From assembly GCA_041690595.1 (NCBI GenBank), contig JAWLHB010000008.1:186001-238840 (forward strand): a stretch of DNA of 52,840 nucleotides, written 5' to 3'. Within the stretch, counting starts at the first letter, position 1, and the number at the start of each line of letters is the position of its first letter. Positions 18,001-39,000 of this stretch are shown piece by piece. A program made the position numbers. This stretch comes from Lentisphaeria bacterium (GTDB lineage Bacteria; Verrucomicrobiota; Lentisphaeria; JABSQK01; JAWLHB01).

Positions 18001-21000
18001 ATTATGGTTGGTGATCAACACCAGCAGCCCGCCGGGACCGGTAAGGCGTGAGACCTCGATGTTGGTAACGTCCCCGTTGACGATCGCCGTGGGGCGGACG
18101 CCGGAGGCGCGAATCTCGCGTCGCAGCAGAGCCGTCATGGCCGCTTGCGGGTCGAGGGAGTACTGCCGGAAGACTTCGGTGCCTGCCAGCACGGCACGGC
18201 CGTTGCCGTAGCGGTTGGCGATCACCGCCTGTGGGCGAAGTGCGTCTTTTATGACACTGCCGCCAAAGTGCCCGCAATCGTCTCCGCCTCTGGGCGCATG
18301 CCGGCGGGCATCGTCGAGGTCGACCTCACCGCCACGATCCTCGAAGCCGGTGGTGCCGTGCCGCTGCCGGACTGCGCGGGGCGCTCCCTGTGGTCGGCAT
18401 TGACCGGCAAGGCGGATGCCGACTGGCCGGCGCACGTGCTTGCCGAGCAGATCGCGGGCGATGGCAAACCCGCCCGCATGATCCGCAGGGGGCAGTGGAA
18501 GCTGAACTGGTTCCCGGGGCGCGAGATCGACATTGAGCTGTTCAACCTGGAAGAGGATCCCGACGAGATCCACAACTGCGCCGCGATCCCACCTGCGCCG
18601 AGCTCATCGCCTCCCTGCTGGCCGACCTCCAGGCCGACGGCTGGTCGACCGAGCGCATTCAGGCCGTCCAGGAAGCCCGCAAAGAGGACTACAAGTACAT
18701 CTGCGACTGGGCACGGGTCGTCACCCCCCAGGACGACATCCAGTGGGGCGTCGCTGCCTCTCTTTAGGGCCTCCTGAAAAAAAATTAAGTATCGGACTTC
18801 TTGCAATCGCCGCAGTTATTACATATATTCCGATACGTACTTTATCGAAGAAGGAGAAGCATGCTGATATGGTCACCGCCGGGGATTCACTCAGCCTACG
18901 GATGGCAAGTCGGCTTCGTCGGCTCATCTCAAACCTGAAGCCGGGAGACAGGTTGCCTGCCGAGACAGCGCTGGTGGCGGAGCTCGGCGGCAGCCTGACG
19001 AAGGTGCGGGAGGCGCTGACGCTGCTGGTACAGGAAGGGCTGATCGAACGGCGACAGGGCAGCGGCACCTACGCACTGGACACCAGACAGACGCGTGCTG
19101 TGGGAATCTTTTCAAGCCTCGACCTGACACACCCTCACTCGGGCCTCTTCTTTCGAGTCCTGACCCATGAATTGCGCGAGTTCTTTGCCCGCGAGGGGCA
19201 GGCCACGCGCCTGTACCTCGGCCACAGCCGTCCCGGAGACACCGCAGCAGCGGTCTGCGATCCGATCCTGCAGCACGATCTGAAGCATCACCAGCTCTCC
19301 GGCGTGATCGCGCTCACAGGCACTCGTAGTGCAGAGTGGCTGGAGCCGCAGTGCGAGCGCGCCGGTGTGCCGCTCGTGGGGCGCACCAGCGATTATGCGC
19401 ATGCCTGTATCGTGCCGCATCAGGAAATGCTGAAGGTGGCGGCGCATTACCTGCACGACCGTGGGTGTCGGCGACTGGCACTACTGGGTTGGGAGGAGGA
19501 GCATCACCCGGGCGGGGCTCCGCACGACCTGGTCGACGAGATGCGCGCGTGGCTGCCCGACCATGTGATCATGCCCGATGCCTGGGTGCGCACCGACCTG
19601 CATCCCGCCTGGCCCGGCGCCGGCTGGGAGGAGCTGCGCGAAATCTGGATGAGCCGCCGCGATAAGCCCGACGGCCTTATCGTCGCCGACGACAACCTGC
19701 TTCTGGACGTCGCCACCGCACTCGGCGAGATCGGTATCGGCGTGCCCGAGGACCTGCAGGTAGTCGCCAAGAGCAGCGCTCGCGTCACGCCCACGATGCC
19801 CTTCCCCCACGCCCGCGTCGAGATCGATCCACGCATCTGTGCTGAAATCATGGGGCAGATGCTGCTGCAACTGCAGGACCGGCCATCGCGCCGGCGACTC
19901 CACACCGAGGCTGAATTTCACCTCATCGTGCCGACCGATCAAGGCACGCGCCACAGGTCCGTCCATAACCGCTCATCTCAAGAGGTCCGCTGATGCATCG
20001 CATAGCCAGAACCTGCCGTTTTACACTCATCGAATTACTGGTCGTGGTGGCTATCATTGCCATTCTGGCCAGCATGCTGCTGCCGGCCCTGACTCGGGCG
20101 CGAGAAAGCGCTCGCAAGACCTCCTGCCAGGGAAATATGAAGCAGATCGCCATGGCCCAGGCGCTCTATGCCGATGCCGCGGATGGCTTCACGCCGCCGT
20201 GGCGCAATGCCAGCACCAATCAACGGTACTGGCACGAAGAGCTGGCGGAACACACGGCTTGGCAGTGGGAGATGTGGATCTGCCCCGATTCCCCCACCCG
20301 CGGGCAAGGGCGCGACCTGACCGAGACGGAGCCTTTCGCCAATACAGGAGCCTATATGGCGCTGATTCAGTCGATCGGCATCCAGGGTGGCGCGTTCAAT
20401 GAGGCGATGTGGCATCGCCTCTCAAGCTTTGGCTATCCGGAACTACTCGTCTATGCCGCTGATTCGGCAACCCGCAACGACGACACCCCGGGAAACAGTA
20501 GCGCGGGACAGCTCATCCGCATCAATCCCGGTACCAGCATCTGGCCGGATCATGGCGCAGGTTTCTTTCCGCGACACCTGGGCAGCGTCAGCCTCAGCTT
20601 CATTGACGGACATGTGGCCTCGCACCAGGAAGGTGAAGTGCGCTACTGGACGGCTGCCGGCTGGAACAGCGAGCCGCACAACCAGCACTTCTTCGGCAAG
20701 CACCCGAAATAGGGATTCAGCGCCACCAGCTCAAGCCCAATCCCAGTCTGTCCCGTTGACCAAAAGGAACCCCTCTATGAATCTTCGCCTGCTACTGCCC
20801 TTCCATCTCCTGATCATGGCGTGCCTGCCGGTCTTTGGCGCCGACTCGTCCGAGCCCCAGAACCGCCTGATCCTGCCACTCGCGGAGCAGGCGCCGATGC
20901 TCGATGGGGTGATCGACGACGCTGAATGGCAGGCGGCAAGTCGTGTTGACGGCTTTGGCTCCGACCCGCGAATGGCGCGTGCCTACATCATGGCGACGCG

Positions 21001-36000: not shown

Positions 36001-39000
36001 CACCCACCGAAAATGTCATCGCCATGTACGAGACCGCCCAGCACTATGGTTGCTATCAAGAATCCTGAGTTGAACCCCACGGAGCGCCTGCACTGGGCAC
36101 GGCTGGCGCACAGGATCTCTCGACCCGTACTGAAGCGCTGACCGAAGACTGGCTGGGACGCCGGGTCTGGCTCGGGGATGACGCGCCCCTGGACACCGCA
36201 CTGAAATTCTGCCGTTGATACCTTACCAGACCAGGAGGTCTACTTTGCCATCTTCACGAAAACGCTGCGCCATCGTCGGCGTTGGCCACCGCGCCCACAG
36301 CTGGCTGACCGGCATCGCCGAACAGCACCCCGAAGCCGCCGAGCTGGTCGCCCTCTGCGATCCGGAACTCCAACGTTGCCACGACGCCAACGAGGTGTAC
36401 GGCACCGAGGCAATGGTTTACGACGACTACGGACGGATGCTCGCCGAGGCCCGAGCGGATCTAATCATCGTCAACACGCCGGAGCGTTACCATTGCGGCC
36501 ACATCGTCCAGGCGCTCGACGCGGGCTGCGATGTGGCGACGGAGAAGCCGCTCTGCACGACCATCGAGGATGCGGAGGCAATCATAGCCGCGGAGCAGCG
36601 CAACGACCGCAAGATCTTCATGGCCTTCAACTACCGGCACATCCCGCTCTGTTCGAAGATCCGCGAGCTGGTGGTCGGTGATGCCATCGGTCGCCCCGTC
36701 TCAATCGATCTGACCTGGTATCTCGACTACAAGGGCCACGGCGCCAGCTACTTCCGGCGCTGGCATCGGCTCATGCAGGAGTCAGGCGGCCTGCTGATCA
36801 CCAAGGCGTGTCACCACTTCGACCTGGCCAACTGGTGGATGGACGACGTGCCCGCGCTGGTCTTTGCGCAGGGGGACCGCAATTTCTTCGGAGCCGGCAA
36901 GAACCCCTACCAAGGCCATCGCTGCTCCACCTGCGAGCACGCCAAGGTCTGCGATTGGTACACCGACGTCTGTGTCACCGATCGCACCGAAGAGCTGAGC
37001 CGGGAGCTCGGCTACCGCGTCAAGGGCGTTCGCGGCTACATCCGCGACTACTGCCCGTTCGGCGACGATGTGGACATCTACGACACCATGTCCGTGAATG
37101 TGCGCTACAAGAACGGCGGTCTGCTCAACTACAGCCTCAACGCCTCCGTCCCCTACGAGGGCTGGAACCTCGCCATCAACGGCACCAAAGGCCGGTTGGA
37201 GAGCAAGATCACCGACAACAAGCCCAGCCCCGGCTGGCAGGAGAAGCACCAGATCATCGGCCCCGACGGCAAGCCGCTCAAAGGCAAAGGCTACCGCATC
37301 ACCGACTGGCCAGCGGAGTATTCGATCCACGTCATGCCGCATGATGCAGACGACTACCAGGTGCGCCTGCCCAACATCGCCGATGGGCATGGCGGCGGTG
37401 ACTACAAGATCATGGACGCCGCGCTTGCCGATCTCTACCCCGCCGAGGACACGCTCAACATCTGGGCCAGTGCCGTGCAGGGCGCCCGCAGCACCGCCAT
37501 CGGCGCCGGCGCCAACCAGTCCATCGCCAGCGGCCAGCCGATCACCCTGCCGGACTTCGACGCATGATCACAAGTGCACTGGCAGATGCCTTTCGCGACC
37601 CGCCCGCCGAGTACCGGGGCATGCCGCTCTGGGTGTGGGCCGGTGAGTTGCAGGTCGACAATCTCTGCCGACACCTGCGCAATCTGCAGGAGATGGGCTT
37701 TGGCGGGGCCTTTCCGCACGTTCGGGTTCTGCTGCACACCCGTTTACATGGGCAAGGAATGGCTGAATGCCATGCAGGTGGTCAGCGAGGAGGCCGACCG
37801 CCTCGGCATGCGGCTGGCTCTACGACGAGGATCGCTGGCCCTCCGGCTATGCGGGCGGCCTGGCGACAGAAAAGCCGGAACACGGCGCTCGCTACCTGCT
37901 CTTCACCCCGGAGCAGTTGCAGCCGGATGCATCCACCACACTGCTGGCCGTCTATGAGGTGCAGACCGCCTCGGATGTACGACGAACCGGGCAACGCGTC
38001 GATCCCACCTCCCGTCCCGCGCCGGGCACGGAGCGCTGGGTTGCCTGGGAGATCGCCTGCCGGATCCTGCCCCGCTTCAATCATCGTCCCTACCTGGATA
38101 TGCTCTCCCCCGAGGCCGTGCAGACCTTCATCGGCGTCACCCACATCCCCTATCTGCAGGCGCTCGGGCCGGAATTCCGTGGCGTCTTCACCGATGAGCC
38201 TGCCTTTCACCCGGCCACCGGCTACGACGATCCGAGCTTCTGCCATCGCCAGTGGCCCCGCCGGGCCGATGCCGCCGAAGGCATCGCCTATTCCTGGACC
38301 AGCCGCCTTGAATCGCTCTATCGCGAGCGCTACGGCGCCGTCGACGCCCCGAAAAGAAAGACATCTTCAAAGTTGCTCACGTCAGCTTGCTCCGTGGTTC
38401 CGTCAGATTGGTGTACCTGCCTGCCATGCCTGTTGCCACTGAAACGTAGAGCCGCCGTGGTTAACATGCATTCGAAAGTATTGGCCGGAAATTTTGCTTA
38501 TGCTTGAAGCTTTCGGCCACCATGCTACCGTCGCGGCATGAATGAGCGACTGATCAATGTGGAAGTCTTTCTCGGCGCGGCGCCTTTGCTGGAGCTTCGC
38601 CTGGTCGAAGGATTGCTGAGCTTTGGCGACAGCCACCCTCAGTGGCGCTTTGCCCTTCGTGGCGCGGACGTACGCTACACACCGGAGTGGCTGCGGCAGC
38701 AACGGGTCAGCGGCGCCCTCGTCCTGATCGAGGTCGCCGACGTCGCGCCCGTTCTGGATGCCGCCGATGTGCCCTGGGTGCACCTCCTGCCGGCGGTACC
38801 GTTTTCGCACCCGGCGGTGATGGTTGACGACTCTGCCATTGGTCGGATGGGGGCCGAAGCCCTGCTCGAACGGGGTTTTCGCAGATTTGCTTTTTGCGGG
38901 GTCGGTACATCCTGGAGCCTGGAACGGGGACGGGGATTCAAGGAACGTCTGGCCGAGGCCGAACTGGGGTGCCCAATGATGGATACTCACTTCGACACGG

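Follow-up and report, generated by a model that had tools for sequence, protein, structure and literature searches.

Variable DUF1559 pilins in regulated glycan-degradation operons of a Lentisphaeria bacterium: candidate substrate-matched subunits of a retractile type IV pilus

Introduction

Among the hard glycans that PVC bacteria break down are mucin and fucoidan. Many of these bacteria have no SusC/SusD (an absence noted for Kiritimatiella in the available part of PMC5148204), and the locus described here raises the question of how they achieve selective uptake of polymers. The locus belongs to a 52,840-nt stretch of contig JAWLHB010000008.1 from a Lentisphaeria bacterium (the window; position 1 is contig position 186,001, and coordinates are positions within the stretch) that holds three cassettes, each running from a regulator through a pilin gene to a secreted protein. 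DUF1559, the family of these pilins, is among the largest in PVC bacteria and has no assigned function; its expansion, with flanking signal-peptide genes, was already noted in Tuwongella (PMC8567305, available part). Our literature search found neither a function or glycan-operon context for the DUF1559/H-X9-DG family nor a report of pilins placed in sugar-degradation operons. A genome-wide survey's note had proposed that each such protein is a cargo-specific pseudopilin that docks its operon's enzyme onto the type II secretion system (T2SS). We favour, at a little short of an even chance, a reading in which the DUF1559/H-X9-DG proteins belong to a retractile type IV pilus as non-core minor pilins, each matched to a substrate, and this pilus does the job of SusC/SusD.

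Results

Cassettes in the window and across the genome

The order of regulator, prepilin and large secreted protein described in the note is borne out by three cassettes in the window (Table 1), one of which, on the minus strand (11776-913), lies beyond the range given there. The pilin start overlaps the regulator stop in cassette 2 (at 19993), and the overlap in cassette 3 is 4 bases. The regulator-pilin pair of cassette 1 was found again in one relative (G106), and the third window pilin has a counterpart in one relative only, on a contig that ends after the pilin. An Rfam search gave no match.

Table 1. Genes of the three cassettes in the window.
Position	Strand	Feature	Basis
913..2949	-	Protein without signal peptide, 678 aa, no Pfam match	Sequence, Pfam search
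3063..6395	-	Paralogue of 6419-9820, 1110 aa	Faint heparin lyase HepB match, E 0.048
6419..9820	-	Signal-peptide protein, 1133 aa, no Pfam match	Pfam search, gene calls
9895..10650	-	DUF1559 pilin, Arg at -1, cassette 1	PF07596 3.2e-10
10655..11776	-	GntR + Peripla_BP_3 regulator, cassette 1	Pfam
18869..19993	+	GntR HTH + Peripla_BP_3 sugar-sensor regulator, cassette 2	PF00392 3.7e-16, PF13377 2.9e-15; ATG at 18869 in frame
19993..20712	+	DUF1559/H-X9-DG pilin, predicted type IVa fold, Arg at -1, cassette 2	PF07596, TIGR02532; AlphaFold2 model
20777..24127	+	Putative glycosidase, 1116 aa, signal peptide, DUF6067/GH123_N	PF19543 5.3e-16
24160..24873	+	Secreted LamG/ConA-like lectin domain protein	PF13385 4e-11
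24870..26015	+	URO-D-like protein without signal peptide	PF01208
26012..27508	+	Sulfatase without signal peptide, cytoplasmic	PF00884 1.4e-53; sequence
27505..28590	+	URO-D-like protein	PF01208
28871..29944	+	GntR + Peripla_BP_3 regulator, cassette 3	Pfam
29941..30702	+	DUF1559 pilin, His at -1, cassette 3	PF07596 2.8e-10, TIGR02532
30742..31290	+	Secreted protein, 182 aa, no Pfam match	Sequence, Pfam search
31287..34973	+	DUF6067/GH123_N paralogue, 1228 aa, signal peptide	Weak PF19543; domain set same as 20777-24127
34989..36068	+	URO-D-like protein	PF01208
36215..37567	+	Gfo/Idh/MocA oxidoreductase, prolongs cassette 3 operon	PF01408

Among the 5737 genes of our own calls for the genome, the class III motif search gave 198 matches, from which a strict pattern drew 170 DUF1559-type pilins, close to the 184 GspG-like prepilin genes counted earlier. 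A GntR- or LacI-type regulator lies directly upstream on the same strand in 62 of the 170 (65 in the earlier figure), and the gene that follows a GntR-plus-sensor gene is a pilin in 44/87 cases, against about 3% expected. The full triple is rarer than had been claimed: it occurs for 33/170 pilins, or 41 if one gene is allowed between, rather than for most of them or about 70 times, and 58/170 have neither a regulator nor a large secreted neighbour. A same-strand non-pilin gene follows 125 of the 170 (median 797 aa), with lipoproteins making up 7/125. Fifty operon genes from 12 regions include GH29, GH78, GH4, GH116, GH32, GH39, sulfatases, DUF4838 and GH123_N; a signal peptide is carried by 3/74 sulfatases.

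The enzyme at 20777-24127 is a putative GH123/GH36/GH101-like glycosidase. Its model (pLDDT 87) predicts a CBM9-like domain, two Ig domains, a supersandwich, a TIM barrel and a C-terminal sandwich, with fold matches to CBM9 (1i82, Z 14.6) and loose ones to GH36-like 9awt (523 aligned) and GH101 2zxq (449 aligned); searching PDB sequences with its profile gave nothing significant. Barrel residues Asp836 and Glu911, a candidate catalytic pair by analogy with GH101, are kept in 24 and 23 of 26 aligned rows.

Pilin family and fold

The window pilins are members of the DUF1559/SBP_bac_10 (PF07596) and H-X9-DG (TIGR04294) prepilins of PVC bacteria, with the class III motif and the His/Asp-Gly motif. 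All three score 31.5-41.1 bits with PF07596 (gathering score 23.3). The TIGR02532 matches exceed their cut-off, and a hydrophobic helix bearing Glu5 stands behind a short basic leader; Glu5 is found in 170/170 pilins, a count partly imposed by the search pattern. TIGR04294 matched one window pilin, at 14.6 against a cut-off of 19, and across the 170 the C-terminal motif keeps His in 99%, Asp in 90% and Gly in 91%. Paralogues are 83% identical over residues 1-30 and 21% identical in their heads, which contain 3.7% W, 6.5% Y and 6.5% N versus 2.3, 3.4 and 3.2% in large secreted proteins.

In the model the pilin fold is that of a type IVa pilin. The AlphaFold2 prediction for the cassette 2 pilin (pLDDT 80) has a helix at 3-53 and the long helix with antiparallel sheet of the lollipop that defines type 4 pilins; it matches PilA4 modestly (Z 5.7, 116 aligned over model range 1-211, rmsd 3.4), followed by the DNA-binding minor pilin ComP (5.0), EpsG (4.8) and PilV (4.4), and a profile search returned PilA4 at 3e-14 and PulG at 1.5e-6. 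Foldseek gave no match at E<=0.001, the head matched no lectin in the structure comparisons, and an atlas search with the head returned unnamed clusters alone. Four other pilins in the genome have LamG lectin heads.

Pilins and their operon partners

The alternative that survives best, a doubtful one in our estimate, is a looser form of the note's proposal. Each pilin would serve as an adaptor for the secreted proteins encoded in its operon, either exporting them through a type IV filament (T2SS or T4aP) or displaying them on it; TcpB plays such a part for TcpF, whose export signal it binds (PMC10120004, available part). Directly downstream of 74/170 pilins lies a gene for a soluble protein of at least 500 aa that is signal-peptide-like by our own hydropathy rule, and the two genes are often translationally coupled; of the other genes, 530/5542 are of this kind. 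Pilin pairs with similar heads have homologous downstream genes in 10/36 cases versus 1.5%, and one head subfamily has DUF6067 directly downstream in 15/33 loci of relatives, versus 11/170 for all pilins. Head subfamilies travel with enzyme families, and every pilin has its link to a glycan locus; this much of the cargo-specific pseudopilin idea is supported.

The pairing is not one to one, however, and a T2SS dock for one pilin and one enzyme is not supported. Among foreign loci of the second window subfamily, 0/6 have DUF6067 as the next gene downstream, and pilins 43-47% identical to one paralogue sit before three unrelated proteins. A single head subfamily is followed by at least three sets of proteins unrelated to one another, as expected if the head tracks the substrate. 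Large secreted proteins number 0 to 6 per operon, with none in 50 of the 152 pilin operons and two or more in 59, and 331/531 are encoded outside such operons. Among 93 homologues of the window enzyme, a pilin lies directly upstream of four, none resembling the window head. No docking domain is shared (the CBM9-like domain occurs in 22/93), and a universal docking domain or PEP-CTERM tail, sought in the downstream proteins, was not found. A Mantel test on 13 pairs gave rho 0.26 (p 0.07), and mirror-trees by domain gave rho 0.12-0.30 with no domain standing out. Counting against the substrate-matched pilus, the link to the sensor domain of the regulator is weak (rho 0.08). A search with DUF6067 domains D4/D5 showed no link to other partner families, and no CAZyme is annotated C-terminal to the pilin among 22 long N-terminal-pilin forms. 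In the 43 full-flank loci of enzyme homologues the most constant neighbour is a LamG gene (23/43), and a pilin is near in 7/43; ordinary transporters, considered as replacements in pilin-less loci, occur in 2/43 only.

Candidate machines

The genome has one prepilin peptidase, in agreement with the survey's note. The gsp cluster reported with it is present (C53), in a picture that was incomplete: there is a second GspG cluster (C28), and besides the GspD/E/F/G machine we found six secretin matches, a pilB-pilB-pilT-pilC locus, seven PilT/PilU genes and a MUL2-like locus (C2:283506-291119). In Akkermansia, MUL2 is linked with both the attachment and the uptake of mucin (PMC13174399).

A GspG-grade match is missing in 10/16 pilin-poor genomes versus 15/101 pilin-rich relatives (26 candidates scored in each). 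GspG is mostly lost where pilins are lost, a link to the T2SS that favours an adaptor and speaks against the pilus. Against a T2SS adaptor, a GspD orthologue is absent in 4/4 pilin-rich genomes checked, all also GspG-negative (the GspG and GspD absences rest on assemblies 92-99% complete); strict T2SS co-loss was seen in 29 genomes and did not hold across 144. The IVa fold, a pairing that is not one to one and these pilin-rich relatives weaken the case for docking onto the T2SS; a different type IV filament may still export or display the enzymes. Several pilin-rich relatives without GspD/GspG keep PilT and a MUL2-type PilM and secretin. PilT occurs in 29/29 genomes and does not single out this machine, because pilin-poor genomes carry it too; an Amuc_1101-type PilM is present in 5/5 tested GspG-negative pilin-rich genomes and also in G066 and G081. 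An operon of pilin, secretin, PilM and ATPase (C7) was rejected as a dedicated machine, being present in 4/32 genomes only.

Transporters and adhesion

Alongside the 152 pilin operons the genome encodes 4 TonB receptors (PF00593), 12 SBP_bac_1, 1-2 MFS_2 and 2 SSF genes, and Pfam detected no TonB-dependent transporter among the window genes. Genes with at least four TM helices number 20/671 inside pilin operons versus 329/4896 elsewhere. In 70 genomes of the phylum, TonB receptors number 0-5 in the 20 that have at least 40 pilin candidates, and the 8 with at least 10 TonB receptors have at most 19 pilin candidates, a comparison among kin that uses first-look candidate counts; the split is also seen within the window's own order. 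This scarcity of TonB receptors and transporters would be left unaccounted for if the heads served adhesion only, fixing the cell to a matching glycan particle with transport by another route, and we regard that explanation as unlikely, although it accommodates the variability of the heads, the LamG-headed pilins, the description of MUL2 as attachment (PMC13174399) and the modular adhesive pilins already known (PMC10191384, available part).

Leader peptides

Unlike the usual prepilin rule, Gly at -1 is mostly missing in these pilins: the leader ends in Gly or Ala in 30/170 and in another residue in 140/170, which counts against the pilus, that ending being given as invariable for type 4 pilins in the available part of PMC10191384. 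The corresponding residues of the genome's own GspG/H/I/J are A, R, Q, R and G, R, R, and those of the Gsp pilins in relative G080 are S, S, N, K; because these mostly break the rule too, the tolerance is lineage-wide. A peptidase insertion of roughly 100 residues was rejected as its cause, since most class members have 273-330 codons and lack it. Among 120 long homologues, 41 are in-frame regulator-pilin fusions; cytoplasmic proteins, ordinary enzymes among them, are recurrently fused in front of the pilin leader, and fused and unfused alleles coexist. That the proteins are no longer pilins, and stay uncleaved in the inner membrane as anchored periplasmic receptors that bind solutes or relay signals, would suit the leaders, the regulator fusions and the family's older naming as solute-binding proteins (PMC2754498, available part), but we consider it very unlikely given the equally relaxed Gsp pilins, the shared Glu5, and fusions that extend to ordinary cytoplasmic enzymes and occur beside unfused alleles.

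Discussion

A retractile pilus with substrate-matched minor pilins would work as follows. A sugar signal would free the GntR/LacI-type regulator, whose place in the gene order is observed, and the operon would then express a single pilin alongside the periplasmic and cytoplasmic enzymes that act on one glycan. By sequence, the pilins have a common assembly helix, and what sets them apart is a head rich in aromatic residues and Asn. They would be matured by a peptidase tolerant of non-Gly leaders and incorporated together into one retractile type IVa pilus that they share, for which PilB/PilC/PilT with a MUL2-type PilM and secretin, all present, are the candidate machine. Each head may bind its own glycan, either unaided or in concert with an enzyme-lectin pair; retraction could then pull the glycan through the secretin to the periplasmic enzymes. 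The pilin would therefore fill the substrate-specific capture role of SusC/SusD in Bacteroidota. Aromatic-rich surfaces bind proteins as well, few TonB receptors also fit enzyme export with small-sugar uptake via porins, and the pilus leaves the passage of oligosaccharides to cytoplasmic sulfatases unexplained. A wider claim seems to us improbable as a whole: that Lentisphaeria and other PVC bacteria import polysaccharides by a competence-like retractile pilus with up to about 300 inducible glycan-binding pilins, as a TonB-independent alternative to SusC/SusD, using a peptidase that ignores Gly/Ala and can free fused cytoplasmic regulators and enzymes.

About 170 fast-evolving pilin genes occupy the operon place where other bacteria keep substrate-specific importers. 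The cassettes offer the DUF1559 family a testable job: for each pilin they suggest a ligand and a machine as candidates, so that both polymer uptake in PVC bacteria and DUF1559 function can be tested in culture, and Victivallis-type strains are culturable. Import or export alike would mean that a type IV filament recognises its substrates in modular fashion, to an extent for which the literature found has no description, and loss of the Gly/Ala rule would alter prepilin prediction.

Among known systems, GspG/PulG share the N-terminal helix (EpsG Z 4.8; TIGR01710 E about 1e-6 to 1e-9), but the window pilins score 28.1-36.9 bits against a TIGR01710 cut-off of 88.85, and true GspG genes lie elsewhere, in C53 and C28. 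In TcpB-TcpF and CofB-CofJ substrate specificity likewise comes from a minor pilin whose gene lies next to that of a secreted protein (PMC10120004, available part), but there one type IVb pilin serves one cargo within the machine operon, whereas here the predicted fold is type IVa, the pilins are many and no cargo is fixed. ComP, PilV and PilX of Neisseria, non-core minor pilins that act as ligand-specific subunits along a retractile pilus (PMC10191384, available part), resemble the window pilin in their type IVa fold (at low Z-scores, ComP 5.0 and PilV 4.4); they are three genes rather than 170, with DNA or the host cell as ligand. Akkermansia MUL2 (Amuc_1098-1102) has a homologous locus in this genome and the relatives tested, but it is one machine locus, and the 170 variable pilins in separate operons fall outside its description (PMC13174399). 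SusC/SusD loci are alike in layout: each combines a sugar regulator with glycosidases and sulfatases and with one envelope protein that varies with the substrate; here, by contrast, the window loci have no TonB receptor, the downstream genes show no notable excess of lipoproteins, and the variable part is a pilin.

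Cassettes in the window and across the genome

Three cassettes were recovered in the window by ORF listing, translation and Pfam, the third lying outside the range covered by the genome-wide survey's note. The pilin start overlaps the regulator stop or lies four bases from it, and the homologues that bear names are from Victivallales/Victivallaceae, which points to the class Lentisphaeria. After the first GH123_N protein follow, on the plus strand, genes for a LamG protein, a URO-D-like protein, a sulfatase and a second URO-D-like protein; the second plus-strand prepilin precedes a 182-aa secreted protein, a 1228-aa GH123_N paralogue, a URO-D-like gene and a Gfo/Idh/MocA gene. 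URO-D-like genes (window 24870-28590 and 34989-36068) recur in glycan operons, with 48 in the genome and 12 in pilin operons.

Features of the window, in coordinates from its start
Feature	Position	Strand	Basis
Third cassette	11776 to 913	-	ORF listing, Pfam
CopA/CopB copper oxidase pair between cassettes	11966-14586	-	
Single frame joining metallo-beta-lactamase-fold and DHDPS-family domains	16403-17863	-	
GntR+Peripla_BP_3 regulator	18869-19993	+	Pfam
Prepilin	19993-20712	+	ORF listing, Pfam
1116-aa signal-peptide protein with GH123_N	20777-24127	+	ORF listing, Pfam
Short sulfatase-like remnant (apparent)	~28590-28750		
Second plus-strand regulator	28871-29944	+	ORF listing, Pfam
Second plus-strand prepilin	29941-30702	+	ORF listing, Pfam
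Broken or frameshifted gene, start like GH106 proteins found in pilin fusions	37564-38507		
AbiEi/AbiEii-type pair	40199-41805	+	
IS4 transposase	46818-48041	-	
HipA/HipB-like pair	50294-51768	-	By eye

The 8.1 Mb genome (97% complete; 5737 genes by our own gene caller) holds 198 matches to the class III motif, 170 of them DUF1559-type pilins, a set without three truncated copies and divergent ones. A regulator stands immediately upstream on the same strand of 62 of these, and a large soluble signal-peptide protein immediately downstream of 74, against a background of 530 such proteins among 5542 other genes; a pilin comes next after 44 of 87 GntR+sensor genes. Our own hydropathy rule served to call signal peptides, and profiles seeded with genes of the window to call regulators; each will miss some. 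The association of pilins with regulators and large secreted proteins is far above chance, and the cassette layout is real and widespread. The survey had counted some 70 cassettes with most pilins between regulator and enzyme; the full arrangement proves a minority, with both neighbours adjacent for 33 of the 170 pilins, both within two genes for 41 and neither for 58. For 50 genes taken from operons in 12 fetched regions, Pfam matches comprise fucosidases, a rhamnosidase, GH4, GH32, GH39 and GH116 together with sulfatases, heparinase-like, DUF4838 and GH123_N proteins, and 13 of the 50 lacked any Pfam match.

In the predicted model of the 1116-aa protein (pLDDT 87), a CBM9-like domain that matches 1i82 (Z 14.6, rmsd 2.5 over 163 aligned residues) is accompanied by a pair of Ig domains, a supersandwich, a TIM barrel and a sandwich at the C-terminus. 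The model loosely resembles a GH36-type galactosaminidase (9awt, rmsd 7.6 over 523 aligned residues) as well as GH101. Both Asp836 and Glu911 are conserved, and this protein is likely a glycosidase.

Specificity of the pilin-enzyme link

Of 36 pairs of pilins in this genome whose heads (the variable part after the N-terminal helix) are similar, 10 have homologous downstream genes, versus 1.5% (permutation p 0.002); in the other 26 these genes are non-homologous. Searching the head of the first plus-strand prepilin (19993-20712) alone against 351 class genomes gave 38 foreign matches, and at the 33 loci fetched DUF6067, the GH123_N family, lies directly downstream in 15 and within one gene in 17, compared with directly downstream of 11 of 170 pilins in the window's genome. 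Seven of the 33 carry instead a CBM4-bearing protein of ~1400 aa, mostly behind a 420-aa gene, two carry GH71-like and GH42-like proteins, and seven others. Three unrelated sets stand behind pilins 43-47% identical to one paralogue (on contig C35), and for the subfamily of the second plus-strand prepilin DUF6067 is directly downstream at none of six foreign loci.

From the enzyme side, 160 loci with homologues of the 1116-aa protein were fetched, 139 of them distinct. Among the 93 with sufficient flank, 4 have a pilin immediately upstream, and among the 43 whose flanks are complete, 7 have one at any position; no pilin at these loci resembles the window head, and a LamG gene occurs at 23 of those 43; pilins accompany 9 of 15 Lentisphaeria-named records and 6 of 65 others. 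Across the genome, the 170 pilins fall into 152 operons that also encode 200 large secreted proteins, with no such protein in 50 operons and two or more in 59, and 331 of 531 large secreted proteins sit outside pilin operons. The link between pilin and enzyme is thus real and heritable (15 of 33 loci, 10 of 36 pairs) but not one-to-one, given the 26 unmatched pairs, the foreign loci of the second subfamily, the enzyme-side survey and the operon counts.

Fold and leader of the pilins

Identity between pilin paralogues is 83% for residues 1-30 and falls to 21% for the head, which is rich in Trp, Tyr and Asn; Cys36, Cys88-Pro, Tyr112, His186 and Asp-Gly are fixed. In the two plus-strand window prepilins the head covers roughly residues 25-210, and W61, W86 and P157-x-N159 are features specific to a subfamily. 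The predicted model (pLDDT 80) found nothing in Foldseek at E ≤ 0.001, and a wide fold search placed type IV pilins on top with modest scores throughout (PilA4 Z 5.7, ComP 5.0, EpsG 4.8, PilV 4.4). Since PilA4 and geopilin also outscore PulG in the sequence profile and the TIGR01710 match is far under cut-off, the survey's label of GspG-like pseudopilin is no better founded than type IVa pilin.

The leader ends in Gly or Ala in only 30 of 170 pilins, a position termed invariable in the consulted part of a review (PMC10191384). Because the rule is also broken by the true Gsp pilins of this genome (G000) and of two others (G080, G055), we infer from these sequences that the prepilin peptidase may tolerate other leaders. 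The single A24 peptidase gene (locus L023, G000:C11:11189-12445; 418 aa) has both Asp motifs and four Cys by eye, and an insertion of ~100 residues ahead of the second Asp motif that is common to a few phylum genomes only.

Two short, near-identical DUF1559-like pilins (locus L011, G000:C28:84339-85547; 160-165 aa mature) have the canonical Gly-1; together with the three multi-pass membrane genes that come next, they represent a candidate major pilin with glycosylation genes. Four pilins with a LamG/ConA-like head (G000:C9:70321-71262, C13:3958-4788, C16:82520-83371, C86:3290-4144) stand alone, away from glycan operons.

Candidate machines

The genome has six secretin matches and two GspG clusters, on C53 and on C28 with C37, the latter set being conserved in relatives. 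It also encodes a locus like MUL2, the Akkermansia Amuc_1098-1102 type IV-like pilus locus, a pilB-pilB-pilT-pilC set and seven PilT/PilU genes. A further operon (locus L004, G000:C7:125517-133481) is headed by a DUF1559-type pilin and includes an Amuc_1098-like secretin, a PilM-like protein, a PilB/GspE ATPase and a pair of small genes; just 4 of 32 genomes have its PilM orthologue, and each of the four belongs to the window's order.

The survey's note had read the pilin as an enzyme-specific dock on the type II secretion system. In a set of 144 genomes of the class, each 92% complete or better and with only 26 candidates scored per genome, a GspG-grade match is absent from 10 of 16 genomes that have at most 16 prepilin candidates, from none of the 27 in the 17-39 range and from 15 of the 101 that have at least 40. 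Four GspG-negative genomes in the last group also lack a GspD orthologue (control G055, 3e-110), and in five pilin-rich GspG-negative genomes T2SSG was absent from two and weakly matched in three. PilT is present in 29 of 29 genomes, and an Amuc_1101 homologue in all seven pilin-rich GspG-negative genomes examined. The type II system goes with the lifestyle yet does not seem to be required, although assembly gaps may account for missing genes.

Elsewhere, one frame of 1500 aa (locus L009, G000:C3:215713-220215) combines an MsbA-like ABC transporter (residues 17-572) with a secretin domain close to its end, and is either a fusion or an artefact. The inventory of type IV filaments is extended by two cassettes for Verru_Chthon-like minor pilins and by a Tad-like cluster, at G000:C11:176354-181922, C33:5335-12586 and C9:140885-148787. 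In one relative, the MUL2-like locus (L341, G081:C1:327454-335103) has three Amuc_1098-like secretin genes in tandem, and tandem pairs occur in genomes of families f2 and f3.

Capture, export or adhesion

We favour, tentatively, a reading in which these proteins are minor pilins, each matched to a substrate, in a retractile type IVa pilus that captures and imports glycans: they would be induced, cleaved and assembled, would bind a glycan and would move it inward. The genome has four TonB receptors, 12 SBP_bac_1 genes, two SSF genes and two MFS_2 matches, one above cut-off; multi-pass membrane genes are scarce in pilin operons (20 of 671 versus 329 of 4896), and only 3 of 74 sulfatases have a signal peptide. 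Among 70 phylum genomes, with PF07596 counts taken as first-look candidates, the 20 with at least 40 candidates have 0-5 TonB receptors, whereas 15 of the other 50 have six or more, and the eight with at least ten have at most 19 candidates. The contrast holds within the window's order (G069, G072 and G073 versus G000 and G066); TonB receptors are absent from all 19 members of f2 and f3, pilin-poor ones included, these kin being non-independent samples. This scarcity fits import by a pilus, and also export with uptake through porins. That the pilins act as cargo adaptors for export or display we consider somewhat unlikely. A role in adhesion only we consider improbable.

Most doubtful is that the pilins are uncleaved receptors, for which the rarity of Gly or Ala leaders might speak and against which pilin fusions lend cleavage modest support. 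Among the best 120 of 743 longer homologues (P0140-P0259), 93 carry the pilin motif internally, behind mostly cytoplasmic proteins (41 regulators, plus GH63-like, GHL6, GH106 and others), and four of these have a signal-like N-terminus; in 22 the pilin is N-terminal with no annotated CAZyme attached, four are tandem and one lacks the motif. The fusions are in-frame and polymorphic within 90% clusters, occurring in several independent assemblies in the ten clusters inspected, some alongside unfused alleles, and 59 of 93 retain a Met no more than 15 residues from the motif. The simplest reading of these sequences is that read-through may be tolerated, with the peptidase bringing about release. 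Substrate-matched capture and import remains our preferred reading over all three alternatives.

Relation to known systems

No description of regulator-pilin-secreted protein cassettes was found in the literature searched, mostly the main texts of open-access papers. In the portions consulted, the DUF1559-type family has been described for its expansion, flanking signal-peptide genes and presence in membrane fractions (PMC8567305) and for its solute-binding label and expansion (PMC2754498, PMC4807772, PMC5352709); other related papers, likewise consulted in part, are PMC11131199, PMC5148204, PMC11958385 and bioRxiv 10.64898/2025.12.30.696933. Related systems are treated in work on MUL2 (PMC13174399) and, in the part consulted, on TcpB/TcpF (PMC10120004).
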